From assembly GCA_037200965.1 (NCBI GenBank), contig JBBCGK010000001.1:416001-480000 (forward strand): DNA of 64,000 nucleotides, written 5' to 3'. The DNA comes from a bacterium. Lineage in GTDB: Bacteria > Patescibacteriota > Minisyncoccia > Phycocordibacterales > Phycocordibacteraceae. The position numbers were made by a program, and so were the translations under genes. Positions 5,372 through 64,000 of this stretch are shown piece after piece. The notes under the pieces are model-generated. The model had not been told where the DNA came from, ran no database searches, and saw only the letters and a list, made by a program, of their open reading frames with translations. How positions within the stretch are numbered: the first letter of the stretch is position 1; each line of letters begins with the position of its first letter.

Positions 5372-5553
5372 GCCTTGAGGATAAGGGTTTCGTGAAGGAA
5401 TACAAGGCGAAAGCCGCCCCCGCCAGAAGCAACCTCGGCTGCTTCTGGCGGGGGCGATTACTCTTTCCTTGGCATAGCGGACTTTGGTTACGATCCAACA
5501 ATCTTTGTCCGACGTTCCTTAGTACTCTCCGTTCGGGGAAAAAGTTTCAAACA

Positions 5554-7545
5554 CTATGCCTCGCCCTTGAGTATTTTCTTCAGCGTCTCTTCAGGAACTT
5601 CGAAAGGCTGCACTCCTGGCGTTTTTTGCTGCGTTTGCGGTTCTTGCCGCGGTGCCGGAGCTTGGGGCACAACATCTGTCGCCGCGGAAGGCGCTACGGC
5701 TGGCTGCTTCGCGATAACGCTCGCGAGCGCGTCCTTGAGCGAACTTTGCTTCTCGGTCTCTTTCTGCTGTTTCTCCTTCCCGGCCGATGCGGTCATATTC
5801 TTGAGTATTGATTTAAGCTCCTCGGTGGTCTTTGCTTTCGGTACGGGCGGAACGCGTTCCCGGATCGGCGCGTTTATGGGCCGGTTTTGCTCTACGGAAG
5901 CGGGCTCGCCCATGGGAAGCTCTTCCCGGTGCGGGCGCGGCGGAAGCGCCTCTTCCTTTGGTCGTGGAGGGAGCGTACGCTCCGGAGAAAGGACAGGAGC
6001 GCGCATCAGGGTCCTTGCGGGAGAAGGCATGCGGGCCGGAACCGGGCGCTCGCTTGCCTCGCGCCGTGGCGCGGCAGGCACCGGGCGGGCCCCGGGCCCC
6101 GGCACTTCGCTTCCCTGGTTCGCAAGCGCCTTTTGCATGGCGACATTGCTTGGGGCTTTTCTCGGGGCCCCTGGCGGGCCGTACGAGGCCTTGCGCATGC
6201 GTGCGTCGACCGGCGCTTCGGAGGCGACGCTCGCCTCAAGCTCGGCGACTATGGCGCTTTCGATTCCTTCGCGCGGCGAGGTGAACTGCGCGCGGGAGGA
6301 GGCGATAACCTCGTTCCGGTACGAAACGGGCGGCGCTTCGATCGGCGGTATGGTTACGGCCGAAAACGGCGGCGAGCCGACGCCGTCGATCATGAGGGTC
6401 AGGTATATCTGCCGCTTGTCGAGACCGACGATGTCCTCCTTGAGGAAGGCGGGCGAAAAGACCGTTTCGAGTGTCTCGGCGTCGAAGGGACCGACGCGGA
6501 ACGCGACCGTCGTGCCCACGTTCCCGAATACGGCGTCCCGGACCTCTTCTTCCATCTGTTCGATGTACTGGTGCGCGATGACGAGGTTAAGTTTGTATTT
6601 TCGGGCTTCGGAAAGAATCTCGGCAAACGTCTCGTTCGCGAAGTTCTGGAATTCGTCGACATAGAAATAGAAGTGCGGGAGCCGGGCGAGGTCGGCGCCG
6701 TGGAGATTCGCGCGGCTCATGGCGCCGAGAAAGATGCGCGTCGTTAGCATGGAGCCCAGGAGCCGCATGTTGGTCTCGCCGACAAGCCCCTTCGAGAGGT
6801 TGATGATGAGTATCTTCCGGTTGTCCATCATCTCCCTGATGTCGAACGAGGACTTCGGCTGCCCGATAATGTTTCGAATGAGCGGGTTCCCGGTAAACTG
6901 GCCGATCTTGTTCTGGATCGCGGGCGTCGCCTCTTGCGTGTACTTGTCACCGTAGTTTGCGAATTCCTTGACCCAGAAATCCTTCACGACCGGATCTTTC
7001 ACGTTATCGACGACTTTGGTGCGATAAGCCCTGTCGGTGTACATGCGGTTCACCCCGAGAAGCGTCGCGTCCGGGTATTCAAGGAGCGCGAGGAGCGTGT
7101 TCGTGAGGATGTACTCCATGCGGGCGCTCCAGGCGTCCTCCCAAATCTTCTTGAAGGTCGCCATGAGACCCGAGACCACGAGGTGTCGCTTGTCGTACCC
7201 GACGTCTTCCATCACGTTGAAAGCGATCGGATTGTCCATGTCAAACGGCGCGAAGTAGACCACGTCCTTGATGCGCTCCTGCGGGACGTACTCCAGGAGC
7301 TTGTTGGCAGTCTCGCCGTGCGGGTCGATAAAGGTGAGACCTTCGCCGTTCCGAAGGTCCTGGATCGCCATGTTCTCAAGCAAGGTCGACTTGCCCATAC
7401 CCGTCTTCCCGATCACGTACATATGGCGGTCGCGGTCCTTCTGCTTGATGCCAAATGGCACTTTCTTCCCTCTCGAGTCGGTCGCCGCGAAATAGGTAAC
7501 GCGTTCCGGATTATCCATGCGCCTATTATACACTTTCCAACGCAA
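5554..7545 (-). CDS. TraD/VirD4/TrwB-like (type IV coupling protein family, FtsK/HerA superfamily) ATPase with a long Pro-rich C-terminal tail
   Basis: Walker A VIGKTGMGKSTLLEN followed by ...FIDPHGE (pattern of TrwB GTTGSGKS...VDPNGD); Walker B FYFYVDEFQNF. C-terminal roughly 260 aa is low-complexity and P/A/R/E-rich. Paralog at 59402..60715. Confidence 0.6.
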   Translation of the reverse strand: MRWKVYNRRMDNPERVTYFAATDSRGKKVPFGIKQKDRDRHMYVIGKTGMGKSTLLENMAIQDLRNGEGLTFIDPHGETANKLLEYVPQERIKDVVYFAPFDMDNPIAFNVMEDVGYDKRHLVVSGLMATFKKIWEDAWSARMEYILTNTLLALLEYPDATLLGVNRMYTDRAYRTKVVDNVKDPVVKDFWVKEFANYGDKYTQEATPAIQNKIGQFTGNPLIRNIIGQPKSSFDIREMMDNRKILIINLSKGLVGETNMRLLGSMLTTRIFLGAMSRANLHGADLARLPHFYFYVDEFQNFANETFAEILSEARKYKLNLVIAHQYIEQMEEEVRDAVFGNVGTTVAFRVGPFDAETLETVFSPAFLKEDIVGLDKRQIYLTLMIDGVGSPPFSAVTIPPIEAPPVSYRNEVIASSRAQFTSPREGIESAIVAELEASVASEAPVDARMRKASYGPPGAPRKAPSNVAMQKALANQGSEVPGPGARPVPAAPRREASERPVPARMPSPARTLMRAPVLSPERTLPPRPKEEALPPRPHREELPMGEPASVEQNRPINAPIRERVPPVPKAKTTEELKSILKNMTASAGKEKQQKETEKQSSLKDALASVIAKQPAVAPSAATDVVPQAPAPRQEPQTQQKTPGVQPFEVPEETLKKILKGEA

Positions 7546-7588
7546 CGGCCGCGCCTAAAGACGCGGTCGTTGCTTATTTTCGTTTTTT

Positions 7589-7816
7589 CTACCCTACGCT
7601 ACTGATTTCTTCAGAGCCGCCTGGCGCCGGAGCGGGAGCGGCGGCGGAAGCGCGTATCTCCGCGCGTACCCTTGATTGACGCAGCGAGAGGCCCGCGACC
7701 ACTATGGCGATGCCAAGGATCGGTAGAAACCATGAGAGCCACGAAACCGGAAGGCCCGAAAAAGGCGAAAGGAAAACGAGGACGCCAAGAAGTATAAGGG
7801 TACTTACGCGGGACAT
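7589..7816 (-). CDS. small hydrophobic (two predicted TM segments) hypothetical protein
   Basis: 75 aa: MSRVSTLILLGVLVFLSPFSGLPVSWLSWFLPILGIAIVVAGLS...; sits in an intergenic gap. Confidence 0.3.
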   Translation of the reverse strand: MSRVSTLILLGVLVFLSPFSGLPVSWLSWFLPILGIAIVVAGLSLRQSRVRAEIRASAAAPAPAPGGSEEISSVG

Positions 7817-8619: not shown

Positions 8620-9477
8620 TTAAGAACAAGTTGGCACAAGCGTGAGTGATTTCGTTAAGTAAATACGGGGCGAATTGAAGATTTCCGGCGAGGAAAATCT
8701 GAAGCAGAATTCCCTCACGTATTCCTCCAAGTTCTCGCTCCAGTGATGATGATACATCCTGCGCACGAAGGTGCGGTATACCCCGAACATTCCCTCGATC
8801 TCAGAGGTGTGCTCGAACTCGAATTTGGAGTGAATATCTCGCTGGTGCGACACCGGCCAGCGTTGGCTGATGTTCTTGTATATCGACCCGCCATCGGTCC
8901 AGAGCTCGCTTCCCGGCGCCACATGCTCGAACAGGAATGAGACGGCATCAGTCTTGGTTGGGTACCTGCCGTGGAATACCTCGAAGGCGAGCTTTCTCGT
9001 ACCTTTCTGCTTGGCCATGACGAGCGCGGCGTTTTTGAAGTACGCTTCGTCCATTTGGACGATACGTTCGAGCACATGGGTTTCCTGGGGCAAATGGAGC
9101 CTGAAGGTGGCATACCAACGCCTGACCGTGCGTTCCGGAAGGCCAGAGAGCGTGACGGCTTGGCGTACCGGCTCTTGTATGGTCCAGCACCAGAGCAGCA
9201 CCCACCACTGCTCGAGGGGGAGCTTCAGATTCGAGAGCCAGGTGTGCGAGGTGAGGGAGAAGCGGATGCGGCACGTGCGGCACCGATACCGCTCCTGTTG
9301 CTTTTCGATCCTTCGTGACCGGCACGAAGGACAGAACACGTTCTTGCCGAAGAGCGTACGGCGCAAGAACTTCCGAATCTGCGCTTCGCTCGGTATCTGT
9401 TTGAGAGTGTACATAGCTTCCATGGTATGGGAGCTGTGCCAACTGAGTCTGAATGCCCTGATCCGGGGACTTGACAA
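8620..9477 (-). CDS. IS1595-family (ISXO2-like) DDE transposase
   Basis: N-terminal zinc ribbon CPSCRS...YRCRTCR, then IVQMDEAYF...TDGGSIY...E, typical of DDE_Tnp_IS1595. Real start probably MEAMYTLKQ near 9423. Confidence 0.75.
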   Translation of the reverse strand: MSSPRIRAFRLSWHSSHTMEAMYTLKQIPSEAQIRKFLRRTLFGKNVFCPSCRSRRIEKQQERYRCRTCRIRFSLTSHTWLSNLKLPLEQWWVLLWCWTIQEPVRQAVTLSGLPERTVRRWYATFRLHLPQETHVLERIVQMDEAYFKNAALVMAKQKGTRKLAFEVFHGRYPTKTDAVSFLFEHVAPGSELWTDGGSIYKNISQRWPVSHQRDIHSKFEFEHTSEIEGMFGVYRTFVRRMYHHHWSENLEEYVREFCFRFSSPEIFNSPRIYLTKSLTLVPTCS

Positions 9478-16182: not shown

Positions 16183-16237
16183 AGGTCTAGTATACCTTCT
16201 GTGCGGGCCCCGGGGGCGTTCTCCACAGGGAATTTTG

Positions 16238-16310
16238 TGCACGCTCTAGGATTCGAACCTAGGACCGCTCGAGTATCAGTCGAGTGCTCTACCAACTGAG
16301 CTAAGCGTGC
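16238..16310 (-). tRNA. tRNA-Ile (anticodon GAT)
   Basis: The reverse complement folds as a cloverleaf: GCACGCT-TA-GCTCAGTTGGTAGAGC-A-CTCGA-CTGATAC-TCGAG-CGGTC-CTAGGTTCGAATCCTAG-AGCGTGC-A. No encoded CCA. Confidence 0.8.
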
Positions 16311-16564
16311 AGTTTCGTGATAGTACCAAAATCCGCCTGTTATTTCCACTTTCCCCACCCCCTCCCTTTCCCCCGAACCTTGCCTGTTATAGTGAGCCTA
16401 TAGATGGTCCACCGTGGCAACACGCGCGAACCGAAATTCCTCCGGTCGAGGAGGACTTCTACTCCCGAGTCGAAACTGCGCCGGCATCGCAACAAGGAGC
16501 GCATCTGGCAAAGATGCGTAAAGCGCCTCAAGGTCGCGGAAGTGCCTGCGGCTGCATAGGCCAA

Positions 16565-16598
16565 AAAGAAAGACCCGGATCACCCGGGTTCTTTCTTT
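16565..16598. terminator. long near-perfect palindrome (terminator or RNase III processing stem) between the 16S 3' end and tRNA-Ile
   Basis: AAAGAAAGACCCGG-atcac-CCGGGTTCTTTCTTT, T-rich on both flanks. Confidence 0.35.
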
Positions 16599-16929
16599 AT
16601 TCAGTGCATCGAAAACCTGTAGTCGCGTTCTCTTTTGTTCCGCCTATCCTGCTCCCGCTCAAAGGCTCACGTGTGGCCTTCAAGCGACCGCCGGGTTACG
16701 TTATCCGGCTTCCGTAGCGCGTTTGGGGACGACGCTAATCTCCCACTGTCCTTGCAGACAATATCGACATGATATGCCTTTCGGGCGATATCGGTTCCAA
16801 TTGGATATGTTCCACGAGCAGCTTCCGCTACCCGTGCCTTGTTTCGACTTACTCCCTGTCATTGAGTTTGCCGTAGTCCTGCATACGCAGAATTTCGGGC
16901 ACCCCCAACTCCCTTGAGTTGACGGGCGA

Positions 16930-17820
16930 ATGTGATACTTAGGCAAGTTCACGTTCCCACGCAGCGAGCGGATTTCCCGCACTGCGCGAGCCCCCGGCGT
17001 GCATTTTCGATTTCAACACAGCGATCTTCCTAACCCCTTCTTTCGTGTGATGGGCTTTCGCAATCGCGAGCTCGAGGACTTGGTAAAATAGCTCAAAGTC
17101 CTTTACGCGCTTGCTTTCAAGCGGGTGCCTTTTGAAAAAAGGCACCACGACTTGCTTCAAGAGATCGTAGCTGAAGATCTCGAACCGATAATTATCCCGT
17201 TGATTCTTCCGATATTCGCGTTGGAAGTATATCTTTCCGCATCCCCAGAATTTCTGTACTTTCTCAAGAAGAGGAAGTTCGTCTTCCCGCATCTTGATGT
17301 AGTAACGGCACTGCACCCGGTAACTTACCGAGCCATGCTCTTTCTTAGGTGGAAGCAGATAGACACAGAAACTCCCTTCGCCATCGGTCAAACCGACGAT
17401 GTAATCAGCGGATAGCACGCCTGGTTTTGTCCTTCTCGCGTTCTTCTTGTGGAAGAGCGCAATACTACGACGCAGCTGACTCCCAGTGTCTTTTGATTCC
17501 TGCATACCGACATAGTATCAATGAGTTGACACTACGGGTATTCAAGAACCGTTGCCGTTGTGGACAACTGGGTCTCCCCGGGTTACGCATACTTCTATTC
17601 CATACATCCTCTACGGGCCTTTCTTCGGCACCTTCCCTATCCTCACCGCCCACTGATAGGTCGATGCGGCCCTTTTTGTGTACAGGCTGTGTTTTGCTTC
17701 CAGATCCTTCAGTCCATACCTTACGGCATTGGACCTATCTTTCGGCTACGCTCCCCACGACGAGTGAGGAGGAGTGGATTTGAACCACTTAGAACTATGC
17801 GCTGCCGGGCGCATTTATTT
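16930..17820 (-). mobile_element. 16S rRNA intron (about 890 nt) at roughly E. coli position 1400 (between CTTGTACTCAC and CGCCCGTCA)
   Basis: The 16S exon sequence breaks at about 17821 and resumes at about 16929. The ORF inside is a LAGLIDADG endonuclease. Confidence 0.7.
16939..17505 (-). CDS. LAGLIDADG homing endonuclease (single-motif type), intron-encoded
   Basis: Motif IVGLTDGEGSFCVYL; 188 aa; lies inside a 16S intron. Confidence 0.7.
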   Translation of the reverse strand: MQESKDTGSQLRRSIALFHKKNARRTKPGVLSADYIVGLTDGEGSFCVYLLPPKKEHGSVSYRVQCRYYIKMREDELPLLEKVQKFWGCGKIYFQREYRKNQRDNYRFEIFSYDLLKQVVVPFFKRHPLESKRVKDFELFYQVLELAIAKAHHTKEGVRKIAVLKSKMHAGGSRSAGNPLAAWERELA

Positions 17821-18395
17821 GTGAGTACAAGACTCGAGAACGTATTCACCGTAGTATGGCTGACCTACGATTACTAGTGATTCCGGCTTCATGAGGTCGG
17901 TTGCAGACCTCAATCCGTACTGGGGGCGGTTTTCGGGATTAGCTCCACCTTGCGGTCTTGCATCCTTCTGTACCGCCCATTGTAACACGTGTGCAGCCCA
18001 GGGTATCAAGGGACATGCTGATCTGGCGTCATCCCCACCTTCCTCTCCCGTGAGGGAGCAGTCTCGCCTGACATATATAACAGGCAACGGGGGTTGCGTT
18101 CGTTACCCCACTGAAGGGAACAGTTCAAACCACGAACTGACGACGACCATGCATCACCTGTCCAGCACCCTCGAAGGCTCCGTCCCTTTCGGGTCGGATG
18201 CAGCTGGATTTCTAACCCTGGTAAGGTTCTTCGCTTGCCGACGAATTAAGCCACATGTTCCACCACTTGTGCGAGTCCCCGTCTATTCCTTTGAGTTTTA
18301 AGCTTGCGCTCGTACTACCCAGGCGGCTCGCTTATCGCGTTAGCTTAGCCCCACAGAGGGTCGATACTCCGTAGAGCGAGCGAGCAACGTTTAGG

Positions 18396-18427
<32 letters not shown>

Positions 18428-18685
18428 ATCCCCTGGCTTTCGTGTGTGAGCGTCAGGAACGTACCAGTCTATTGCCTTCGCCTTTGGTGTTCCCCATGAT
18501 ATCAACGGATTTCACCCCTACACCATGAGTTCCATAGACCTCTTACGCCCTCGAGCCGTACCGTTTCCCGTGCGGACCGGAAGTTGAGCTCCCGGATTTT
18601 ACGCGAGACTAATACGGCCGCCTTGACACCCTTTACGCCCAGTGATTCCGGATAATGCTCGGGGCCTCTGTATTACCGCTCCTGC

Positions 18686-19628
18686 TGGCCATCGTGTGTG
18701 GCATGCCGCACGGGCATGCCGCTCATATCGCTATGAGGATCGGACTATATCATCACCCACCAATACTGATGGGGCTCGGCGTGTAGTCTCTGAGGGGTCA
18801 AAGTATATATTCCGATGATCAGAAGGAAGCTTGTACCTGAAACAGGGCAGGATGTAAGGGGCGACGGTTCTTGTAAACGCGTCGCGTCCTTCTTTCCCGA
18901 TATACAGTTTCGGATACCGCTTCCCGCGGCACAGCGACAAATAGGTTTTTGCCGCGATGCCGAATCTCTCTAATAACAGCGCTTGCAGTCGCTTCACCTC
19001 CGATTCCGTGAAAGAATCAGTACTGATGTGGTACGCATAATGGGATTTTGCTCGATAATCGAGCCTCCCATCATCCATGAACCACACCGCGAGCGTGAGC
19101 GGCGACCGGAACAATTCGGTGATATTTCCAGGAACGACCTTCTCGCGTCCCGCGTAGAAGATTTTGCGCATGTCTTCGAGGTTCTCGAAGAAACGCGTTC
19201 CGAAATACCACTGTTTCGTATCCGGTCTTTGCTTCGGAGGAGTTTTGACGAGATGCGCGAAGTGACTATAAAGCCACACTACATACTCCTTTCGTTCCTC
19301 CGATTGCTTTACCTGCAATCGGGTGCCTCGATAGCCGTTAAACTCGAGATTTCCATCTCCGAGCATGAGGCCTACGAGCACATCCCGTTGTTGCTTCGAG
19401 AGCGCACAGATCATCTTCACAATTATACTCGACTTCCCTGCTGATTGTCTCTTGGGATCTGATTTTGATTTCAAAGAAATCTAAACCAGACGCAGTCCAC
19501 AAGAGAGTTCCAGCATATAGCCAAGTTTTCGATCTCGATTTCTCGAGAAAGCTGCACGCGGTAACGAACGGTTCGTGAGAACCGTTCGATTTGCTCCAAT
19601 GCGCAGAGCCACCTGCGCACGTGTACAG
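18686..19628 (-). mobile_element. 16S rRNA intron (about 940 nt) just 5' of the 515 region
   Basis: The exon stops after ...AACTCTGTAC near 19629 and resumes at GGCCAGCAGGAGCGG near 18685. Confidence 0.7.
18731..19474 (-). CDS. LAGLIDADG homing endonuclease (two-motif monomeric type), intron-encoded
   Basis: Motifs LVGLMLGDGNL and LAVWFMDDGRL; 247 aa. Confidence 0.7.
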   Translation of the reverse strand: MKSKSDPKRQSAGKSSIIVKMICALSKQQRDVLVGLMLGDGNLEFNGYRGTRLQVKQSEERKEYVVWLYSHFAHLVKTPPKQRPDTKQWYFGTRFFENLEDMRKIFYAGREKVVPGNITELFRSPLTLAVWFMDDGRLDYRAKSHYAYHISTDSFTESEVKRLQALLLERFGIAAKTYLSLCRGKRYPKLYIGKEGRDAFTRTVAPYILPCFRYKLPSDHRNIYFDPSETTRRAPSVLVGDDIVRSS

Positions 19629-20209
19629 AGTTAGGAGCCCCTTATTCCCCGGGTACCGTCAATTACTTCGTCCCCGGGAAAAGCTGTTTACGTACCTAAG
19701 CACTTCGTCCAGCACGCGGCGTCGCTCCGTCAGGCTTGCGCCCATTGCGGAATATTCTCGTCTGCGGCCTCCCGTAGGAGTATGGGCCGTATCTCAGTCC
19801 CATCGGTGGGGGTCAGCCTCTCAGCTCCCCTAAACGTCGTAGCCTTGGTGAGCCATTACCTCACCAACTAGCTGATATTACGCAGGTGACTCCCGGAGCA
19901 ATAAATCTTTACTCTCGCGAGACCATCGGGAATTACCCAACCTTTCGGCTGGCTATGCCCGACTCCGGGGGATCTCCCTGCGCGTTACTACCTCGTTCGC
20001 CACTGCCCTTGCGGGCCGTTCGACTTGCATGACTTATCCACGCCGCCAGCATTCATCCTGAGCTAGGATCAAACTCTCATTAAGAATAGGCGGAACAAAA
20101 CAAAACATAACTTACAGGTTTTCTTGCACCCCCAAGACCGTGCCGGTCCTGGGGACTTTATTCGTATGTCAGAGAGCAAATAAAACCGGCCCCCTGTGGG
20201 GCAGGTAAA

Positions 20210-22666: not shown

Positions 22667-23218
22667 TTATCTTGAAACTTCCGAGAGGATCCGGTCTATC
22701 TGCTTATGAAGCTCTTCGAGCGTGCCGTCGTTGGTGATTGTAAAGTCAGCCGAATCAATGACGGCACGGATATTGTGCTTTGCCGGATCGTTCGATGCTA
22801 TTTCCCGCTCGTTGTCCTCGACAAACTTCTCAAAAGAAACCTGATCGGTCTCGGTTCCCCGCTTCCGTATACGTTCGTAGCGCGCTCTGACATCCGCGTC
22901 CACGCCCAGGATTATGGCCCCGTGCTCCCGGAGGAAATTCGCCTCTCCGAGCGTATGCAATGACTCGATGATAACATCGGCTCCGTACGATTGCGCGCGC
23001 TTCAGAAGCTCTCCCGTGATATATCCGGCTCCATGTTTCGCGCGTAAATCGTTCGCGACGATGCTCAGATTATCGCGAACGCGCGGAAGGCCCCGGCGAT
23101 CCACTTCTTCCCAGAGAAAGTTACGAACCGAGAAATGTGTAAATCCTTGTTCTTCGACCAAGTACTCGACCACCGTTCCCTTCCCCGCCCCGAGCGTCCC
23201 GGCGATACCGAGAATCAT
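22667..23218 (-). CDS. P-loop nucleotide kinase family protein (dephospho-CoA-kinase / dNMP-kinase-like)
   Basis: MILGIAGTLGAGKGTVVEYL (Walker A); 183 aa. Confidence 0.55.
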   Translation of the reverse strand: MILGIAGTLGAGKGTVVEYLVEEQGFTHFSVRNFLWEEVDRRGLPRVRDNLSIVANDLRAKHGAGYITGELLKRAQSYGADVIIESLHTLGEANFLREHGAIILGVDADVRARYERIRKRGTETDQVSFEKFVEDNEREIASNDPAKHNIRAVIDSADFTITNDGTLEELHKQIDRILSEVSR

Positions 23219-23221
23219 GGG

Positions 23222-24130: not shown

Positions 24131-24133
24131 ACG

Positions 24134-25435: not shown

Positions 25436-25495
25436 GATGGGCCTAGTATAAGGAATTAGGGGCCGGATGCAACCGCATCCGAACCAGGTGGAATC

Positions 25496-32375: not shown

Positions 32376-32760
32376 ATCTCTAGTATAAACGAATGCAGCC
32401 AACTCAACGAGTCGGCCGCAAACTCACCTTATGATCTCTTATCGTCTGAAAAGCACGCGGTCGACCGAAGCTTGGAATCGGCGTTTGCAGAAAGCGCATC
32501 CGCTTCCCGCGAACATATGTTCGTAGATAGCAGCAAGCGATGCATGCGGGTCCGCCGACGCTCCTAAACAGGTAGCGTAGGTGCCCACAAAAGGAACTTC
32601 CCATTCATCAATTGCCGCGATGTGCGGATATTTGTTCGCTAACGCCAAAACTTCTGCCGATTCTTGTCCCGAAGTTCTCATGGGCCTTACTCCTTCTCTC
32701 CTTTACCGGGAACTCGTAAATACGGTGCAAGGTTACGAAAACACGCCCGCAGTGCTGGCG

Positions 32761-32861
32761 ACTACCTACTCTCCCCCTTGCGGAGTACCATCGGTTCAAG
32801 AGGGCTTGACTGCCGAGTTCGGAATGAGATCGGGTATGACCCCTCCGACAAATCACCAGCA
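32761..32861 (-). rRNA. rrf: 5S rRNA
   Basis: The reverse complement reads GTGCTGGTGATT...CCGAACTCGGCAGTCAAGCCCTCTTGAACCGATGGTACTCCGCAAGGGGGAGAGTAGGTAGTCGCCAGCAC. Confidence 0.7.
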
Positions 32862-33269
32862 CCGCGGGCGCGTTTTATAAAACGGCACGCACGATGCAAA
32901 CGAGATACGTATAGATGGAAAATGCGAGCGCGCGCAGATTGTGGCACGCAGAGTTCCGCACAGTAGACTCGGCATATTAGTATTCCTCCGCTCCGGCAAT
33001 TGCTTGCCTTCCACGTAGAACCTATCAACCTGGTAATCTCCCAGGTGCCTGATAACGATTTCTAATCTTGGAGCACGCTTCCCGCTTATATGCTTTCAGC
33101 GGTTATCGCAACCCGACATAGCTACCCAGCGGTGCCCTTGGCAGGACAGCTGGCAGACCAGAGGTCAGTTCATCCCGGTCCTCTCGTACTAGGGACGACC
33201 CTCCTCAAAAATCAACGCCTGTAGTAGATAGGAGACCAACCTGTCTCACGCATGTTCTCACGCATTACT

Positions 33270-37642: not shown

Positions 37643-37682
<40 letters not shown>

Positions 37683-56548: not shown

Positions 56549-56585
56549 AGTTGCACAACCTCCTTTTTACGAACGATCCTGCAGG
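56549..56585 (+). repeat. 37-bp direct repeat, copy 1 (left boundary of the cassette)
   Basis: AGTTGCACAACCTCCTTTTTACGAACGATCCTGCAGG, identical to 58765..58801. Confidence 0.8.
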
Positions 56586-56594
56586 TTAAAAGCC

Positions 56595-56903
56595 GTGACT
56601 GATTTTCATCGAAAGCACGGCTACGACGTGGGGACCGGGAACATGGCGGTCATGTCGCTCAGAATTGGACTACTCATAGAAGAACTGGGTGAACTCCACG
56701 CCGTGGTTTCAAAGGGTGTTGGCGACATTTCAGAGGAACACGCAGACCTCTTGTATCTACTTCTTGGAAACTGCGTCACGCTTGGTATTGATATAGAAAC
56801 TGCTTTCTTTGCAAAACATGCCATTAACATGCGGAGGGAAGCCAAGGTAGTGAGGGGGAACCGCCGTGTATCGGATTGGTCCCATGAAAAATCTCAGGAA
56901 TGA
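56595..56903 (+). CDS. small MazG-like nucleoside-triphosphate pyrophosphohydrolase (MazZ-like)
   Basis: GTG start; 102 aa with MazG motifs LIEELGELHAVV and EEHADLLYLLLGNC; 4-bp overlap with the next gene; low GC. Confidence 0.65.
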   Translation: MTDFHRKHGYDVGTGNMAVMSLRIGLLIEELGELHAVVSKGVGDISEEHADLLYLLLGNCVTLGIDIETAFFAKHAINMRREAKVVRGNRRVSDWSHEKSQE

Positions 56904-57931
56904 AAGCTACAGTCATCATCGGTGCGCAGTATGGCAGCGAAGGAAAAGGTAAGATTGCAGCTTATCTTTCAGATGAGTTCGCTCGTGCAGTTCGAACTGG
57001 CGGGCCAAACTCGGGGCATACCGTCGAGCGCAATGGCACGTTCTATCAAGTTCGAGCGGTCCCTAGTGCCTTCGTGAACCAACAATGTCGCCTCGCGATT
57101 GGTGCCGGGGCCATAATAAACACTGCCGTACTATTAGGAGAATTAACGGCATGTGGTATTGTCGAGGGGCGTTTGATAGTTGACCCTCAGGCTGTCATAA
57201 TTGATGAAGAATATCAAAATTCGGAACTAGATTTAATCAGTTCGATTTCGTCCACCGGACAAGGCGTTGGTGCAGCAATCGCAGCTAAGGTCTTACGTCG
57301 GAAAGTAACTCTCGCAAGAGACGTGCCCGAGTTGCGGCCACTGCTTGCCGATGTTGCTGGCACGATCAATTCCGAACTCCAACAAGGCCTAGCTGTAATG
57401 ATTGAGGGGTCGCAAGGATTTTTCTTGAGTTTGCATCATGGTTACTATCCGTTTGTAACAGGCAGGGAAACGACCGCAAGTTCATTTTGCGCCGAAGTAG
57501 GAATCGGTCCCAAAGATGTGGGTCAAGTGATTGGAGTTCTCCGCACCCACCCGATTAGAGTTGGCGGCCCTTCGGGACCTCTTCAAGACGAAATCGATTG
57601 GCAGACCGTCACCGCCGAGTCGGGCTACCCAACACCGCTGTTAGAGATAACTACCGTTACCAAACGAATTCGACGCGTCGGGAGGTTCTCAATGGCCGAA
57701 GCTAAACGATCTTTGATGATCAATTCGGCGACCCAAATTGCTTTAAACTTCGTCGACTACTTGGACCATGCAAACTTTGGACTTAGAAGCTACACCGCAC
57801 TGACTGCTTCAACAAAAAAATTCATCGACGCACTAGAGACACAAACGGGAGTTCCCGTTTCGCTGGTGGGCACGGGGCCCCGTAACAGCGATATGATAGA
57901 CTTACGACGCGAAAAGAACCTCCCCCATTAG
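56900..57931 (+). CDS. short adenylosuccinate-synthetase-family enzyme (PurA-like; candidate PurZ-like 2-aminoadenylosuccinate synthetase)
   Basis: 343 aa. VIIGAQYGSEGKGK (the PurA P-loop GDEGKGK but with Asp->Ser); GGPNSGHTV (GGxNAGHT); IEGSQGFFLSLHHGYYPFVTGRET (GAQG...YPYVTS); ITTVTKRIRRVGRF (TTGRRRR-GW). Confidence 0.6.
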   Translation: MKATVIIGAQYGSEGKGKIAAYLSDEFARAVRTGGPNSGHTVERNGTFYQVRAVPSAFVNQQCRLAIGAGAIINTAVLLGELTACGIVEGRLIVDPQAVIIDEEYQNSELDLISSISSTGQGVGAAIAAKVLRRKVTLARDVPELRPLLADVAGTINSELQQGLAVMIEGSQGFFLSLHHGYYPFVTGRETTASSFCAEVGIGPKDVGQVIGVLRTHPIRVGGPSGPLQDEIDWQTVTAESGYPTPLLEITTVTKRIRRVGRFSMAEAKRSLMINSATQIALNFVDYLDHANFGLRSYTALTASTKKFIDALETQTGVPVSLVGTGPRNSDMIDLRREKNLPH

Positions 57932-57939
57932 ATACCAGC

Positions 57940-58692
57940 ATGAAAAACCAATACTTTGGCGACTTGAGCGACTATAAGAAGTACGGTTTGCTGCGCACAC
58001 TTTCGATTGAGGGTGAGTGCTCGCTCACTGTGTGTTGGATGCTGACGCGAGATGATCAAAGTACCGACGGGCGGCATACAACTTATTTGGCGGACGTAAG
58101 AGAATGGCGCAACCATGAGCCGTTGGTATTTGATCTACTCGCGGACGCAGTCTTCAAAAATTCCCGTAATCTCGAAATAGTTGAAAAGTCCGGACTAATA
58201 CCGAACTCAAACTACTTTCGTGAGGAAATCGGCGATGCTCCCTCCCAACGGGAAGCTTTTTTTGCCCGATTGGCAGATGAAGCCCGCAATTCTGATATTG
58301 TGTTCTTGGACCCCGACAACGGCCTTGAAGTGAAGTCAGTCCCCTATGGCTCCAAGGGAGCACATAAGTACATTTATCGGTCTGAAATCGAAAAGTTATC
58401 TCGGAATGGACTTTCAATCTTGCTGTATCAACATTTTGGTCGGAAAGAACGGTCTGAGTTTATCCGAGCTATTGCATTGAAACTCATCGATTGGCTGAAT
58501 GTGGAGGAAGTATTTTCACTTCGGACGACGCATACCGTATTTTTTCTTGTGCCGAAAGCTGCCCACAGGTCGCGAATAGATCGATCCCTCCAGGCAGTAA
58601 ATAGACAATGGGGAGATAAGATCTTTATCGAGATACACTCTAAGGAGTCTGTATCAACGGTTACAACGAAAAATCAGTTAGACCTACTCTAA
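57940..58692 (+). CDS. hypothetical protein, third gene of the cassette
   Basis: 250 aa: MKNQYFGDLSDYKKYGLLRTL...IVFLDPDNGLEV...SILLYQHFGR...; no motif I recognise; low GC. Confidence 0.55.
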   Translation: MKNQYFGDLSDYKKYGLLRTLSIEGECSLTVCWMLTRDDQSTDGRHTTYLADVREWRNHEPLVFDLLADAVFKNSRNLEIVEKSGLIPNSNYFREEIGDAPSQREAFFARLADEARNSDIVFLDPDNGLEVKSVPYGSKGAHKYIYRSEIEKLSRNGLSILLYQHFGRKERSEFIRAIALKLIDWLNVEEVFSLRTTHTVFFLVPKAAHRSRIDRSLQAVNRQWGDKIFIEIHSKESVSTVTTKNQLDLL

Positions 58693-58755
58693 GTAAGTGA
58701 GCAACATGGATATTGGAAAGGAGCCTGACTTCGCCTCGGATGCCTACTTTGATAA

Positions 58756-59418
58756 TCCGCAACAAGTTGCACAACCTCCTTTTTACGAACGATCCTGCAG
58801 GACGATATCCACAAATCACTGCTGCGCAGCGCGGGCCTCGCGCATCTCTCGGCGGATGAGATTGGGGACTTGAGGGACTTGGCAGCGCATGAGCTACGGA
58901 ATGAGACCGCGGACCGCGGTGGTCTCATGGCGGGATTGCGACTGCGCCTGCAACAATGCGACACACGGCTATCACGCCTTACAGACGCGCTCCTCGACCA
59001 CCTCATCGAAAAGCAGGAATACGAAGCCAAGAAGGCCGCGCTCCTGGGCGAGCGGCGCGAACTGCTAGACAAACTGGAAAGCCCGGAGGCTTCGCGTCAA
59101 CCCGCCGACGGCGTGCTGCAAGCATTGGAACTGCCAGATGTCGTGGAAACACGCTACGAAATGGCTTTGCCGGACCAACGGCGCCGCATTGCGTCTGCAA
59201 TCGCTTGGAACCTAACTGGTAGCGGAAAAGAGGCCGTACCTGAGCTGAAATCTCCGTACCGGGAGATCGTACAGTGGCGTCTTTCCAATCCGGTGCGCCG
59301 TAACGGGGAGCGATCGGAACCTGACATAAAGCTGCTATACGAAGCGCTCAAAGAAGTCTGCCGGCGAGAAGACAAGCCGCCGCAACGTCCCCAACGTCCT
59401 GATGTCTCCGGCATATAA
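58756..59418 (+). pseudogene. N-terminally truncated recombinase-like ORF (C-terminal coiled-coil region resembling large serine recombinases); no catalytic domain
   Basis: The frame is open from 58756 (through the repeat), but the first usable start is the TTG at 58870. ...RLSRLTDALLDHLIEKQEYEAKKAALLGERRELLDKLESPE...DQRRRIASAIAWNLTG... matches the leucine-rich coiled coil and tail of large serine recombinases. The similarity is from memory, not a search. Confidence 0.35.
58765..58801 (+). repeat. 37-bp direct repeat, copy 2 (right boundary of the cassette)
   Basis: Identical to 56549..56585. Lies inside the open frame that continues into 58870..59418. Confidence 0.8.
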
Positions 59419-60715
59419 GGCGACATACTTTTTCGAGAATTGTCGCGCCTTATGCCGCGTGAATGTCAGGCAGATGCTGTTCTGCATGGATGCGAGCATC
59501 AGCTACTTCGCCCGCACCAACTTCCGCAACCGAAACCAGCTCTTCGGTGTGAGGCAAGCCGACCGTCTTTCGCACCTGTACGTCATCGGCAAGACTGGCA
59601 CGGGCAAGTCCACCCTCCTTGAAACCCTCGCCCGGCAAGACCTTCGGGCCGGGCGCGGCTTCGCCCTCATAGACCCGCACGGCGATCTCGTGGAACGGAT
59701 CGCGAGGGACGCGCCGGAAGCCGTCTATCTGAACGCCCCCGATCCCTCCCAGCCCTTCGGCTATAATCCGCTCCGGAGGGTCAGGGACGACAAGATACCG
59801 CTTGCCGTCTCGGGCTTCCTCGAAACCCTCAAGAAGCTCTGGCCCGACGCGTGGGGCGTGCGCATGGAGCACGTCCTTAGGAATACGCTGTATGCGCTAT
59901 TCGAGCAGGAGGATGCGCGGCTTCCCGATATCCTCCGCCTCTATGCCGACGAGACATACCGGAAGGCGCTCGCCAAGGGGATTAGGAACGATACCGTCCG
60001 CCGCTTCTGGCTCCATGAGTTCGAGCACTTCCACTTTCGCCAGAGGGCGGACGCCGTGGCTCCGATACAAAACAAGATCGGGGCGCTCCTTGCCGACCCC
60101 ACGCTCTATCGCATCCTCGTCGAGCCAAAGGAGGATATCCGCTTCCGTGCCCTCATGGACGGCGGCGGGGTTCTTCTGGTCAATCTCTCGAAGGGCAAAC
60201 TTGGCGAGGACAGCTCGCACATCCTCGGCGCGCTCATCGTCTCGACCCTGGGCCTTGCTGCCTTTAGTCGGGCCGACAGTCCCCCAACCTCCCGCCGCCC
60301 TTTCTTCGTCTATATCGACGAATTCCAGTCCTTCACGACCCTTATGCTCGCCGACATGATGTCGGAGCTGCGGAAGTACGGCGTGGGCCTTACCTTGGCG
60401 CACCAATATATGCACCAGCTTGAACCCGAGATACGGCATGCGGTTCTGGGGAACGCTGGGACGCTCATATCATTCCGTGTTGGCCCCGAGGATGCGTCAA
60501 TCCTGGCGAAGGAGTTTCAGCCGACGTTTGACACACACGATCTCCTGAACCTGCCTAACCACCATATCTATCTGAAGCTGATGATTGATGGGGTGCCGGG
60601 CGGGGCGTTTAGTGCAAATACAGTCGATCATTCGACGCGGGGAGAGACAAAGCTCGCACCGCTACGAAGGACTTCAGACTTGAATGCGGGCGAAAGCGCG
60701 TCTGACTATGTGTGA
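59402..60715 (+). CDS. TraD/VirD4/TrwB-like coupling-protein-family ATPase (paralog of 5554..7545)
   Basis: LYVIGKTGTGKSTLLETLARQDLRAGRGFALIDPHGD; Walker B FFVYIDEFQSF; collinear with the other copy at roughly 45% identity by eye. Confidence 0.6.
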   Translation: MSPAYKATYFFENCRALCRVNVRQMLFCMDASISYFARTNFRNRNQLFGVRQADRLSHLYVIGKTGTGKSTLLETLARQDLRAGRGFALIDPHGDLVERIARDAPEAVYLNAPDPSQPFGYNPLRRVRDDKIPLAVSGFLETLKKLWPDAWGVRMEHVLRNTLYALFEQEDARLPDILRLYADETYRKALAKGIRNDTVRRFWLHEFEHFHFRQRADAVAPIQNKIGALLADPTLYRILVEPKEDIRFRALMDGGGVLLVNLSKGKLGEDSSHILGALIVSTLGLAAFSRADSPPTSRRPFFVYIDEFQSFTTLMLADMMSELRKYGVGLTLAHQYMHQLEPEIRHAVLGNAGTLISFRVGPEDASILAKEFQPTFDTHDLLNLPNHHIYLKLMIDGVPGGAFSANTVDHSTRGETKLAPLRRTSDLNAGESASDYV

Positions 60716-60835
60716 GCGGGATCACGTTTTTTTGCAGATGGCACGCCCGCGTGGGCTGTTTTGGTAATTGCCATAGCGTCTTGGCAACAACTGGGCGTCA
60801 GTACCTGGCTTCCCTCACAGGTTGAATATATTACA

Positions 60836-60858
60836 GTATAGCTCAACCATATGTTGAG
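60836..60858 (+). promoter_or_regulatory. perfect palindrome overlapping the start codon of the ATP-grasp gene (candidate operator)
   Basis: GCTCAAC-CATATG-TTGAGTC; an upstream TTGAAT...TATAGC promoter-like pair. Confidence 0.3.
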
Positions 60859-61855
60859 TCGCCGCATGCCCGGTATTACCGAATTACTTTTGAAAATCGC
60901 GCCCAAGATCGGCGCAAAAGTGCTGATCGAGCCTGAGTGGGGCTACGTCGGGCAAATCGCCTTCCGAAGCGGTCGCAAGCGGTACTTCCGGTTCTCCAGC
61001 GTTGACGTGAATACGCTGGGCGCATCGGAAGTCGCGAAGGACAAAGATTTTGCGAACTTCTTCATGAAGCACATGGGTTATCCCATCGTGAAAGGAAAAA
61101 CGTTCTTCCGGGACGACTGGGCAGAGACAATCCGCTCCAAGCGAAAGATCACGGCCGCCTATCGATACGCGCGACGGCTGGGATTTCCGGTGATTGTGAA
61201 GCCTAACAGCGGCAGTCAGGGGAAAGCAGTATGCTTGGCTCGCACGAAGCGTCAATTCTATCGCGGAATGCGGGCGACCTTTGAGGTGGACAAAGTCGCG
61301 CTTGTCCAAATACCTGTTTCAGGAAAAGACTACCGCATCGTGGTCTTGGACCGAGAAATCATTTCGGCGTACTACAGGGTTCCGCTAAGCGTCGTCGGCA
61401 ATGGAAAAGCTTCCGTAGCGGCGTTGCTCAAGTCGAAGCAGAAAGAGTTTCGGCGCGCCGGGCGCGACACGGCGATCAGGGCCGACGATCCGCGCATAGC
61501 GGAAAAGCTCGAGCATCAGGGACTGAGCTTCGCTTCCGTTCTCCGAAAGGATCAAAAGGTTTTTCTTTTGGATAACGCCAACCTTTCGACGGGCGGCGAA
61601 TCGGAAGACGTAACGGAAAGCGTGCACAAGGAGTTCAGGAAAATCGCGGTGTCGCTTACGAGGGATATGGGACTGCGCCTGTGCGGCGTCGATCTCATGA
61701 TAGACGGGGATATCTCGGAGCCGCCCAAAACGTATTGGGTGCTTGAAGTCAATTCGGCCCCGGGGCTCGATCATTATGCGAAAAGCGGCGCGGCACAAAA
61801 CAAAATCGTCGAAAAGATGTATACGACGGTGCTTAAGAGCTTGGATCGTGACTAG
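60851..61855 (+). CDS. ATP-grasp ligase (RimK / cyanophycin-synthetase-N-like)
   Basis: ...FPVIVKPNSGSQGKAV... and ...YWVLEVNSAPGLDHY... are ATP-grasp hallmarks. Confidence 0.65.
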   Translation: MLSRRMPGITELLLKIAPKIGAKVLIEPEWGYVGQIAFRSGRKRYFRFSSVDVNTLGASEVAKDKDFANFFMKHMGYPIVKGKTFFRDDWAETIRSKRKITAAYRYARRLGFPVIVKPNSGSQGKAVCLARTKRQFYRGMRATFEVDKVALVQIPVSGKDYRIVVLDREIISAYYRVPLSVVGNGKASVAALLKSKQKEFRRAGRDTAIRADDPRIAEKLEHQGLSFASVLRKDQKVFLLDNANLSTGGESEDVTESVHKEFRKIAVSLTRDMGLRLCGVDLMIDGDISEPPKTYWVLEVNSAPGLDHYAKSGAAQNKIVEKMYTTVLKSLDRD

Positions 61856-61947
61856 CTCGTGTATAGTCCATACGACCGATCTTCCTGACACCAATAGGCA
61901 TCGGCCAAATCGTGATTGCTGACCAACGTTTTGCGCCGAGCGACCGC

Positions 61948-62238
61948 CTAGTCGGGATCGTAGGGATTATTGGTATCCGTGCCATTGCGCGAGGAACCAG
62001 ACGGCGAACTATACGGATCGACGCGCTTGTGACCTTGCTCGCCCGTATAGGGGTTCACGTTTGGATACGTCGAGTAATTGTTATAGGGATTGCTGTCAGG
62101 CGATGAGCGATGGTGTGGCGGAACATACGTGCCGTCCTTCCGCACATAGCCTCTGACACTGACGTCCTTCGCTGCCGCCTCAGCGCCAGTGGCCAGCAGG
62201 GTCGTGAAGACCAAAAGGGCGGCAAAAATCTTGCGCAT
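61948..62238 (-). CDS. small secreted protein (Pro/Tyr/Asn-rich)
   Basis: Signal peptide MRKIFAALLVFTTLLATGAEAAA; 96 aa. Confidence 0.45.
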   Translation of the reverse strand: MRKIFAALLVFTTLLATGAEAAAKDVSVRGYVRKDGTYVPPHHRSSPDSNPYNNYSTYPNVNPYTGEQGHKRVDPYSSPSGSSRNGTDTNNPYDPD

Positions 62239-62348
62239 ATTAACTCCGATCAAAAATGCGGCTCGATGCTAGTTTAGTGGCTGGCGCAGGGCCAGAGGAA
62301 TAATCTTCGCAAGCGTGCGTCAGGCCACGCCCTACGGTAACGCGTCGA

Positions 62349-63314
62349 TCAGTTCGCCTCGTCGAAAATCCCATTCAGGATCGCCCCAAGCCGCACCCCT
62401 GCCGCCTGCAAGCGCTCTTCCACGATGGCGGCGCGGTCTTCCTTGTAGTTGCCGTCGGGCGCGAAGACGCGAACGGCGCCACCGGTATACGTCTCGCTGT
62501 CTTCGGAATAGCGGCAGGTGGTGCCGGAGAGCGTACAGTATCCGGTGTCGGGCGCGCGGGAGACGGTGAGCGATTCGTTGGCCCATACCATCGGATCGAG
62601 CGACGCCTTCCACGTTGCCCGCTGCTCGTCCGTGATTTCCTTTTGAAGAACATTGCCAAACGCCTCGCGCCCAGGGCCTGCTGGCTTCGTCTGCGCGATG
62701 TGGAGATCACGCATGACTTGTTCGGGAATGCAGGTGTCCCACACGGTATGGAGCGCGGTTTTGCCGTCATAGGCGCAGCCCGAGACGCCCTTCACGCCGA
62801 CGCTGTTGCCGCCGCGATCATCGGCATACGAAATGTGGAGCGGCTGGTGTATGTCGCCGAGCCAGTGCCCGAGGAATTTGAGGGCCGTGCGCTTCTTGTC
62901 GGTTGAGGCATTCGGGTCTTTGAGGATGGCGATATCGGCGGGGATGGCCGTGAAAAGGCACGTCGCCGCATTCACGCACTTGGCCTCGGGGAAGCTCGTC
63001 CAATCGCGCGGCATATTGATGAAGTGCTCCGCCCTCCGGCTGCTTTGCACATCGCCCTTCTCGTCCGGCCAGGTGCAGGCCCCGTGGAAGGTTCTCGGTA
63101 TCTCCTTGCCGTCAGCGTCCTTAAGCGGGGTTTCTGAGCGGATAAGCTTGTTGACCGCCTTGCGGGCCGTCGGCGTGAGCTCCTTGTATGCGATCTCGCA
63201 GACCGCCTCGTGGCCGGTGCCGCCGAAGGCGAGGGCACCGCTCGTTGTGAGACAAAGACTGACGAAGCCACCAGCTCCAAACAGCGCAAGAAGAACCCGC
63301 CGACGTCCACCCAT
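62349..63314 (-). CDS. secreted S1/P1-family zinc nuclease
   Basis: Signal peptide; ...FLGHWLGDIHQPLHISY... (S1/P1 Zn-binding motif); ...TALHTVWD... Confidence 0.7.
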   Translation of the reverse strand: MGGRRRVLLALFGAGGFVSLCLTTSGALAFGGTGHEAVCEIAYKELTPTARKAVNKLIRSETPLKDADGKEIPRTFHGACTWPDEKGDVQSSRRAEHFINMPRDWTSFPEAKCVNAATCLFTAIPADIAILKDPNASTDKKRTALKFLGHWLGDIHQPLHISYADDRGGNSVGVKGVSGCAYDGKTALHTVWDTCIPEQVMRDLHIAQTKPAGPGREAFGNVLQKEITDEQRATWKASLDPMVWANESLTVSRAPDTGYCTLSGTTCRYSEDSETYTGGAVRVFAPDGNYKEDRAAIVEERLQAAGVRLGAILNGIFDEAN

Positions 63315-63486
63315 GTACCCGCTCCCCCTCACTATTCGTGCCCAGGATGCGAGGACTCGCCCTAGCCGAAGAACGGATGATGCCCGGATGATTTCACCCG
63401 TCCAAGAGGAATGTGCGCCTTAGACTTCGTATCGGGCCGGGCCTATGCTGCTTCTATTGGTGGGGTGTTTCTCAGGGGGTATTGGC

Positions 63487-64000
63487 ATGACTAGCGGCAC
63501 GCGAGTTTTTCCGACGCGTTCGTATCGGGCATCATTTCCCATTCATGCGCTTCTTGCCGTCTTCGCGCTTCTCGTCGCGGGTGCGTATGGCCCGGCCGGT
63601 TCGGCCTTGGCCGCGACCAGCGCGGCGTCCTTCTGCCTTGACGCATGCCCCGAGGGCGCGCCGGCAAAGAACAAGACGGTCGTGCACCATGTCTATGCGC
63701 TCAGCTCGAACCCCGACACGAAATTCGCCGATTGGGTCGCGTACAAGATCTCCAAAGCGACCATCGGGTCGAACTGTTCGCGCAAGTGGGCGAAGGACCC
63801 GGACCTAGCGGCCGGCACCACGCTCAAGCCCGCCGATTACAAGGACATCAGTGCGGCGCTCCAGTCCGACCGGGGCCATCAAGCGCCCTTGGCAAGCCTA
63901 TGCGGCTCGAAGTTCAATGCCGAGGCGAACTATCTCTCGAACATCACCCCACAAAAGTCCGACCTCAATCAGGGCGCATGGGTGCGGCTCGAAACCGCCG
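63487..64000 (+). CDS. secreted DNA/RNA non-specific endonuclease (Serratia NucA family); runs off the right edge of the window
   Basis: Manual translation: MTSGTRVFPTRSYRASFPIHALLAVFALLVAGAYGPAGSALA (signal)...SDRGHQAPLAS (DRGH active-site motif)...; no stop before 64000, so absent from the ORF track. Confidence 0.6.
   Translation, partial: MTSGTRVFPTRSYRASFPIHALLAVFALLVAGAYGPAGSALAATSAASFCLDACPEGAPAKNKTVVHHVYALSSNPDTKFADWVAYKISKATIGSNCSRKWAKDPDLAAGTTLKPADYKDISAALQSDRGHQAPLASLCGSKFNAEANYLSNITPQKSDLNQGAWVRLETA

Follow-up and report, generated by a model that had tools for sequence, protein, structure and literature searches.

A stretch of 64,000 nucleotides from a genome of the Candidate Phyla Radiation (CPR, Patescibacteria; assembly GCA_037200965.1, contig JBBCGK010000001.1, positions 416,001 to 480,000), hereafter called the window, encodes two ATPases that resemble type IV coupling proteins (T4CPs) of the TraD/VirD4 kind. 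The locus raises the question of what such proteins do with no type IV secretion system (T4SS) beside them, and whether the two genes arose from one another. In the reading favoured here, which is given roughly even odds (a probability of about 0.5), copy 1 is a membrane-tethered, T4SS-independent motor for handling DNA, and copy 2 was captured on DNA of alphaproteobacterial type.

An earlier note on this DNA had described two open reading frames (ORFs), and both were recovered: a minus-strand ORF of 663 aa (5554..7545) and a plus-strand ORF of 437 aa (59402..60715). To judge from homologue coverage and from the NCBI annotation, translation likely starts further inside, at ATG 7518 for copy 1 (MEJ0053564.1) and at ATG 59486 for copy 2 (MEJ0053614.1).

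5554..7518, minus strand: copy 1, tailed T4CP-like ATPase of 654 aa; possible extension to TTG 7545
59486..60715, plus strand: copy 2, T4CP-like ATPase of 409 aa, proteobacterial element clade; ORF could start at 59402; no tail and no transmembrane (TM) segment

Family assignment of the two ATPases

The two proteins are collinear, with 43% identity over 384 aa (E 3e-109). The motifs GKTG[MT]GKSTLLE, IDPHG[ED], and DEFQ[NS]F are common to both as previously described, except that the residue before DEFQ is not restricted to V or Y, copy 2 reading YIDEFQSF. The Walker A motif lies at about residue 37 of both annotated proteins, which corresponds to residue 46 of the 663-aa ORF and residue 66 of the 437-aa ORF. 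GKTGxGKS and DEFQ occur in both copies, and the P-loop nucleotide-binding domain (NBD) fold is shared with TrwB, HerA, and VirB4.

In Pfam, both copies passed the cutoff of TrwB_AAD_bind (PF10412) with 33.0 and 36.5 bits against 20.5 and, more weakly, that of TraG-D_C. PF01935 (DUF87) was passed weakly, with 28.4 and 25.6 bits against 23.2. The NCBIfam T4CP equivalogs and subfamilies, TraD, SXT_TraD, and CD1115 VirD4-like among them, were all missed widely: NF045973 gave the highest score, 50.9 bits where 250 are required, and TIGR03743 came next with 45.7 of the required 366. A sequence search of the PDB gave a match limited to the P-loop stretch of TrwB. The AlphaFold model of copy 1, in which the core has a pLDDT (predicted local distance difference test score) of 80-93, retrieved TrwB as its top Foldseek match (E 1e-9, target-normalised TM-score of about 0.6) over an alignment of about 435 columns that covers essentially all of TrwB-deltaN70. 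HerA, Cag-beta, DotL, and VirB4 ranked below it. Residues 108-232 of the model form an all-helical insertion in the NBD, which corresponds to the all-alpha domain. The earlier placement in the TraD/VirD4-like class is borne out by the TrwB_AAD_bind scores and by TrwB as the best fold match, and both copies are T4CP-like members of the HerA/FtsK superfamily. This family is very large: clustering at 50% leaves 21,659 representatives, and 5,603 of these score E<=1e-30.

Copies 1 and 2 share with TrwB, VirD4, and TraD the P-loop NBD with its inserted all-alpha domain, and the C-terminal extension in this group likely serves partner docking. They differ from these proteins in having no nearby T4SS or relaxase and no N-terminal TM domain, as no 19-aa window of either copy rises to a hydropathy of 1.6. 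Copy 1 differs further in being chromosomal, vertically inherited, and near-universal in the phylum. Identity to a canonical 695-aa T4CP of the same community is only 21-23% for both copies. The features that define HerA are missing as well: its N-terminal HAS-barrel has no room in the approximately 40 residues that precede Walker A, and neither a NurA nor a Sir2 neighbour is present.

Other family assignments were considered. A paralogue of FtsK/SpoIIIE was ruled out, as FtsK_SpoIIIE (PF01580) reached 13.6 and 15.9 bits against a cutoff of 24, through the P-loop only, and the window holds a complete FtsK gene elsewhere.

47723-49960: complete FtsK gene (4TM, alpha, motor, and gamma domains)

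FtsK and SpoIIIE belong to the same superfamily and are hexameric DNA pumps, and FtsK also carries a long Pro/Gln-rich linker. However, copy 1 has no 4TM or gamma domain and its linker is C-terminal to the motor. Phage origin was likewise rejected: phrog_5156 was matched at E 1e-55, and its arrangement of a ~390-aa N-terminal extension plus ATPase matches the fused long forms described below, but relatives from cultured phages are only 21-27% identical. PADLOC returned only mad8 (a weaker similarity, E 1e-16) and weak HerA matches, with no defence partner genes nearby.

Relationship of copy 1 to copy 2

In a neighbour-joining tree rooted on the canonical 695-aa T4CP, the clade of copy 2 is sister to the entire clade formed by copy 1 and all Patescibacteria-type forms. 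The best 120 of more than 8,000 scored relatives of the copy 1 core are 87-95% identical to it and all 520-700 aa long. At 80 loci fetched from species genomes the core is 81-90% identical to copy 1, and relatives are encoded in at least 562 species genomes. The best relatives of copy 2 show 72-83% identity, measure about 390-410 aa, are tailless, and lie on contigs of up to megabase scale; those with a name belong to Rhizomicrobium.

The two genes had been called paralogous. In the sense of a duplication within this genome that term does not hold, with copy 2 falling into a sister clade of proteobacterial element genes and lying in foreign DNA. Copy 1 belongs to a vertically inherited, chromosomal Patescibacteria branch of the TrwB/VirD4 family, and copy 2 is a xenologue and not a duplicate of copy 1.

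Core and tail of copy 1

Copy 1 consists of a strongly conserved motor (mean top-residue frequency 0.92, maximum hydropathy 1.04) followed by a tail of about 260 aa, the length that had been reported. In the 663-aa numbering its parts are as follows.

6331..7518, minus strand: ATPase core, residues 10-405; P-loop NBD with inserted all-alpha domain, no TM segment; Walker A at residues 46-53 and Walker B at residues 296-303
6181..6330, minus strand: helical extension after the core, residues 406-455; moderately conserved, helices in the model
5836..6180, minus strand: Pro/Ala/Arg-rich disordered linker, residues 456-570; contains PPRPKEEALPPRPHREELP
5707..5835, minus strand: two conserved amphipathic motifs, KTTEELKSILKNM and SLKDALASVIAK, residues 571-613; one long helix in the model
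5611-5706, minus strand: second variable linker, between the helix motifs and the C-terminal peptide
5557..5610, minus strand: conserved C-terminal peptide QPFEVPEETLKKILKGEA (consensus KKPFEVPEDALRKVLKGE); helix in the model, pLDDT about 80

The tail is rich in proline and alanine, as noted before, with 16% Pro and 15% Ala over its whole length and 24% Pro in the linker of residues 456-570. This linker has a conservation of about 0 and, over roughly residues 455-570, a pLDDT below 50. The string PPRPKEEALPPRPHREELP named in the earlier note is present, but the repeats to which it was assigned are merely compositional, as Tandem Repeats Finder detected no tandem repeat. Tails of orthologues range from 129 to 310 aa with a median of 198 (n=75). 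The C-terminal peptide stands at the very end in all 25 close orthologue tails listed, out of 75 extracted, and is kept in relatives down to 53% identity. Other lineages carry different conserved C-terminal peptides, namely PG[EQ]xVxF or FxEPII.

Docking of SH3- or WW-like partners on the proline-rich stretch, proposed earlier, is not favoured by this pattern: that stretch is not conserved, unlike the two helices and the C-terminal peptide, and therefore behaves as a spacer rather than a docking site. A tail-bearing T4CP-like clade of Patescibacteria was defined in this analysis by a soluble core, a disordered tail ending in EVPEDxL(K/R)xxL, and a gene for a protein with two TM segments (2-TM) upstream. 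Copy 1 shows all three features, while copy 2 has neither the tail nor the upstream TM gene.

Conserved neighbours of copy 1

The 80 loci from species genomes share a gene order of MurC ... RsmI, a small 2-TM protein, the ATPase, a ComEA-type protein, and glycosyltransferases. A homologue of the 2-TM gene lies directly upstream of the ATPase on the same strand in 55 of 72 close loci, and the protein from the window matches small TM proteins of divergent lineages (E 3e-13).

7589..7816, minus strand: small 2-TM protein of 75 aa, directly upstream of copy 1; two hydrophobic segments

Gene order and fused forms suggest that the 75-aa protein is the membrane anchor of copy 1. A comparable pair is known from plasmid pIP501, where TraJ, a T4CP without a TM domain, is encoded with the small 2-TM protein TraI, its proposed anchor (PMC12857230). 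The pIP501 pair differs in being part of a conjugative T4SS operon with a relaxase, whereas neither lies near copy 1.

Directly downstream, 59 of 69 close loci encode a protein with a signal sequence, an HHH_3 domain (68 bits), PKD and LTD domains, and a C-terminal TM segment, starting mostly -22 to +30 nt from the stop codon of the ATPase. In the Kaiserbacteria-like group, it is this membrane-anchored, extracellular LTD/PKD protein that also carries the ComEA-type helix-hairpin-helix (HhH) domain, which is a DNA-binding domain. A divergent metagenome sample was deliberately chosen at 41-59% identity to the seed. In 21 of its loci, a separate gene of 446 aa (2 TM segments plus a domain without a known family) stands directly upstream, and its full length aligns to the first 420 residues of the fused long forms (E down to 1e-73). 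An anchored protein with LTD (65 bits) and PKD domains follows downstream in 18 of 51 divergent loci. The membrane module of 2 TM segments and a ~380-aa domain, fused or upstream, is a widespread uncharacterised domain in its own right; profile searches of Pfam, NCBIfam, and PDB gave no match for the ~380-aa part.

No T4SS or relaxase genes were found among the conserved neighbours in 160 related loci. Within the window, Pfam scans of about 40 ORFs detected no VirB4, VirB6, relaxase, pilin, or competence families, in agreement with the earlier statement that VirB-like, relaxase, and pilus genes are missing from these 64 kb. The label of an orphan is thus half right: T4SS partners are absent nearby, but copy 1 has conserved partners of another kind.

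Several details of the locus were observed in the window itself. An IS1595-family transposase gene (DDE_Tnp_IS1595 plus zinc ribbon) at 8620-9477 lies between rsmI and murC and interrupts the otherwise conserved gene order around copy 1. A 12-bp hairpin occurs in the region 7510-7573 between the small TM gene and copy 1, and the sequence TGTATAAT is located 8 nt upstream of the copy 1 ATG. From the position of TGTATAAT, the copy 1 transcript could be leaderless or nearly so. A second hairpin, probably a terminator, follows copy 1.

5415..5456: 17-bp GC-rich hairpin downstream of copy 1, at the place that the ComEA/LTD gene takes in most relatives

Proposed function of copy 1

Copy 1 would act as a hexameric, NTP-driven translocase like TrwB, HerA, and FtsK, held at the membrane by its 2-TM partner, with the flexible tail presenting the C-terminal peptide to a further partner. 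DNA would be handled at the cell envelope, most likely in the uptake of extracellular or host DNA, while conjugative export appears less likely. Nucleotide-auxotrophic cells would need imported DNA, and CPR cells are thought to scavenge it (PMC6744442). Uptake as the specific role of copy 1 is nevertheless a tentative and rather doubtful assignment. A role with DNA outside conjugation, as the earlier note had proposed for both genes, gains indirect support for copy 1 from the linkage to ComEA-HhH/PKD/LTD proteins and from the excess of genomes with a T4CP over those with VirB4.

The arrangement recalls ComEA-dependent competence and T4SS-related DNA import (ComB of H. pylori, archaeal Ced), with the gene of an extracellular, anchored HhH DNA receptor beside that of a HerA/FtsK/VirB4-VirD4-group ATPase. 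Models of CedD and CedB show weak, P-loop-level similarity to the ATPases of the window. These systems differ in that the ATPase operon studied here has no ComEC, pilus, or VirB/Ced membrane components, and H. pylori ComB works without any VirD4 homologue.

The surrounding phylum has been surveyed. Orphan T4CP homologues in Patescibacteria and the idea of their exaptation were already published in 2025 by Quinonero-Coronel et al., who counted 5,713 T4CP homologues in 2,918 of 3,035 genomes, 148 of the 5,713 near virB4, and found VirB4 in 2,417 of the 3,035 genomes (PMC12102498). Because so few homologues lie near virB4 and T4CP genomes outnumber VirB4 genomes, ATPases of the copy 1 type appear to be independent of virB4.

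The main rival explanation for copy 1 is that of a true coupling protein, which would serve a chromosomal MPF-FATA-type T4SS encoded elsewhere in the genome and recruit protein or DNA substrates to be delivered to a host cell, its tail or C-terminal peptide binding adaptors or substrates as in TraD-TraM and DotL. The C-terminal tails of T4CPs are known docking sites, and TrwB is the best match of copy 1 in both fold and family. T4CP genes also often lie far from virB4, which 80% of Patescibacteria genomes possess (PMC12102498). However, the low count near virB4 and the approximately 500 additional genomes with a T4CP argue against it, and in Ca. Southlakia epibionticum essentiality extends to the T4SS genes but not to the T4CP homologue (PMC12102498). 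The conserved neighbours are moreover 2-TM and ComEA/LTD proteins and no T4SS parts, and all NCBIfam T4CP equivalogs were missed, for example with 51 bits against 250. Such a coupling role is considered unlikely, if still a serious contender.

A second rival would make copy 1 a housekeeping DNA translocase or an envelope-biogenesis ATPase, engaged in segregation, division, or cell-wall and glycan assembly, with its neighbours reflecting inherited order. The extreme sequence conservation and the stable location among murC, rsmI, and glycosyltransferase genes fit this explanation. Against it stand the full FtsK in the same window, the FtsK_SpoIIIE scores below cutoff, and the absence of a gamma domain, and the tightest links of the ATPase, by overlapping frames and fusion, are to the membrane module and ComEA/LTD proteins rather than to mur genes. 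It is therefore given very little weight.

Several points weigh against the favoured reading of copy 1 as a T4SS-independent DNA motor. The T4CP homologue of Ca. S. epibionticum is non-essential in co-culture, although it may belong to another subfamily (PMC12102498); this sits oddly with the strong conservation of the copy 1 family. CPR genomes usually also carry ComEC and ComFA/ComFC (PMC6744442), so a second uptake motor is not obviously needed. Neither a ComEA/LTD homologue nor the large membrane module was found in the window, and copy 1, bracketed by hairpins, may be monocistronic here. The ComEA/LTD linkage falls to about 35% in divergent lineages, and among related genomes linkage reflects in part shared ancestry.

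Copy 2 and its serine-recombinase element

Copy 2 follows directly on the remains of a large serine recombinase.

58802..59418, plus strand: 3' stump of a large serine recombinase, C-terminal coiled-coil region only; matches integrase phrog_95

A recombinase and ATPase pair with 75.6% DNA identity to the stump and copy 2 together lies on a 4.0-Mb contig in the same assembly. Copy 2 fits a clade of ~390-410-aa ATPases whose genes mark the edge of an integrated element, beside that of a large serine recombinase. At four independent proteobacterial loci, the module at the edge of the integrated element consists of ArdC, a helix-turn-helix (HTH) protein, a ~430-aa protein, the large serine recombinase, and the ATPase, with no T4SS within 8 kb. 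The ArdC, HTH, and ~430-aa genes are missing beside copy 2. In the plasmid database, the best match to copy 2 is 49% identical and lies on a Sulfitobacter plasmid in the same serine-recombinase neighbourhood. These neighbourhoods mark copy 2 as the last gene of a proteobacterial integrative element that has decayed.

In its source elements, copy 2 may have been the element's own coupling-type ATPase, relying on a helper T4SS as in an integrative mobilisable element, and would now be an inert remnant in the CPR genome. The recurrence of the module at four loci without a T4SS speaks for this, as does the reduction of the recombinase to a stump in the window with the remaining module gone. On the other side, the copy 2 ORF is intact with all motifs, and no relaxase was recognised near the ATPase in the source elements. 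The explanation is plausible, at somewhat less than even odds.

Alphaproteobacterial-type island in a closed circle

Copy 2 would have been brought into the 960-kb genome on about 11 kb of alphaproteobacterial-type DNA. This island runs across the end of the contig and its start, into an HTH_3 gene, a LysR gene, and an acetyltransferase-like gene.

56549..64000: part of the island in the window, of ~11 kb alphaproteobacterial-type DNA
56549..56585, plus strand: left copy of a 37-bp direct repeat, recombinase coding sequence; left edge of the island, 15 nt from the TatD start codon
56586..58764, plus strand: 2.18-kb segment with a truncated MazG/PRA-PH fragment, a short PurA/PurZ-like gene, a 250-aa gene, and the first 20 codons of a P450 gene
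58765..58801, plus strand: right copy of the 37-bp direct repeat, perfect

The recombinase stump reads in frame through the 37-bp repeat. Window positions 56586-58770 match a mobile element of the co-assembled 4.0-Mb contig at 99.95% identity; the chromosomal Asn synthase of that contig has exclusively alphaproteobacterial named relatives. At 37 bp, the repeat exceeds the length of an ordinary target-site duplication. Tetranucleotide and GC3 (GC content at third codon positions) profiles did not separate the island from the CPR DNA.

Copies 1 and 2 lie on one contig of 960,259 bp with consecutive NCBI accessions. A Logan contig from an independent assembly spans the junction of its end and start at 100% identity and without gaps. 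In the Logan contig the island is followed by HTH_3 and LysR genes, which lie at the start of the 960,259-bp contig, with accessions running on. As the Logan contig bridges the ends and the gene numbering is continuous, the molecule is a closed circle with the island inside. The left junction between CPR DNA and island recurs in another assembly at 99.98% identity. The suspicion that the window consisted of concatenated contigs, raised when copy 2 was first seen only on a 6.6-kb contig beginning at 58625, was dismissed on account of the single 960,259-bp contig and its continuous locus tags.

These data also bear on whether copy 2 and the island are foreign to the organism altogether, as they would be in an assembly chimera joined at the 2.2-kb segment that this contig and the 4-Mb genome have in common. 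A chimera would fit the length and near-identity of this segment, at whose ends every short-read contig breaks, and an older study in which the 6.6-kb piece and the CPR piece were placed in different assemblies. The gene content, with LysR and an S1/P1 nuclease, is of proteobacterial type as well. However, the contig closes on itself, with the gapless Logan bridge and continuous NCBI numbering, and the junction between CPR DNA and island was found again elsewhere. With the 37-bp repeat on both sides of the segment, CPR DNA and copy 2 are linked to a single locus, and a circular product would require two misjoins. A chimera is accordingly regarded as very unlikely, and the island as captured DNA.

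The cargo of the island holds further genes. The PurA-like gene at 56900-57931 scored 362 bits against 368 with NF003295 (short archaeal-type PurA), 219 against 300 with PurZ, and matched phrog_1211 at E 6e-72; a remnant ORF lies beside it at 56595-56903. In the donor genome, the PurA-like gene overlaps an AAA_18 plus MazG/PRA-PH gene and is followed by the 250-aa gene and P450. This arrangement resembles the purZ-mazZ pairing of aminoadenine phages, but it stands within an integrative element. At 60851-64000 and beyond, the island carries a RimK-like ATP-grasp protein, a secreted S1/P1 nuclease, a non-specific DNA/RNA endonuclease, HTH_3, and LysR. A cell that scavenges nucleotides might benefit from the two secreted nucleases. 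LysR regulators are unusual in CPR genomes.

Genome setting and other features of the window

The ribosomal RNA (rRNA) genes of the window are interrupted and unlinked. The 16S gene is in two pieces, the 23S gene spans 4.3 kb and contains a group I intron, and 14 kb separate the two genes.

19562-20084 and 17773-18828: 16S pieces with a 733-nt insert between them, within the rRNA region 16237-20084
16939-17505: LAGLIDADG endonuclease ORF, adjoining tRNA-Ile
32753-38226: 23S region, group I intron at 34304-34520

Named relatives of copy 1 are Kaiserbacteria, Paceibacterota, or Minisyncoccia. From this rRNA architecture (split 16S and 23S genes, group I intron, unlinked genes) and the names of these relatives, the window belongs to a CPR/Patescibacteria genome, as had been supposed before.

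Several further genes were recorded. Two adjacent large proteins of 544 and 658 aa at 42578-46293 have PG_binding_1 domains and otherwise no family match, and a 774-aa ORF at 23135-25459 has zero Pfam matches. Past the island, contig positions 1-11625 encode a 706-aa FG-GAP/SpvB protein, a patatin-like protein, and Cas1 with an adjacent 98-aa gene. Given Cas1 and its neighbour, the genome has at least part of a CRISPR adaptation module.

Implications

No paper was found in the literature searched that links T4CP homologues of Patescibacteria to ComEA/LTD proteins or reports the captured island. This analysis adds the set of partners, the motifs of the tail, and the captured island of alphaproteobacterial type; the orphan genes themselves are not new. 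In a more speculative and improbable extension, the 2-TM anchor, the tailed ATPase, and a ComEA/LTD receptor would form a T4SS-independent DNA importer of the envelope, the island would be its output, and the 4-Mb alphaproteobacterium would be a candidate host.

Patescibacteria are unable to make nucleotides, and most have no known host. For the family, a near-universal and strongly conserved ATPase gains a concrete partner set, consisting of a membrane anchor, a ComEA/LTD surface protein, and a C-terminal docking peptide, which points to the handling of DNA at the envelope and away from conjugation. The near-identical 2.18-kb fragment may be a pointer to the host or donor of this CPR lineage. 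For the organism, a closed CPR genome with freshly acquired DNA almost identical to that of a co-assembled alphaproteobacterium offers a sequence-based lead to its host or donor.

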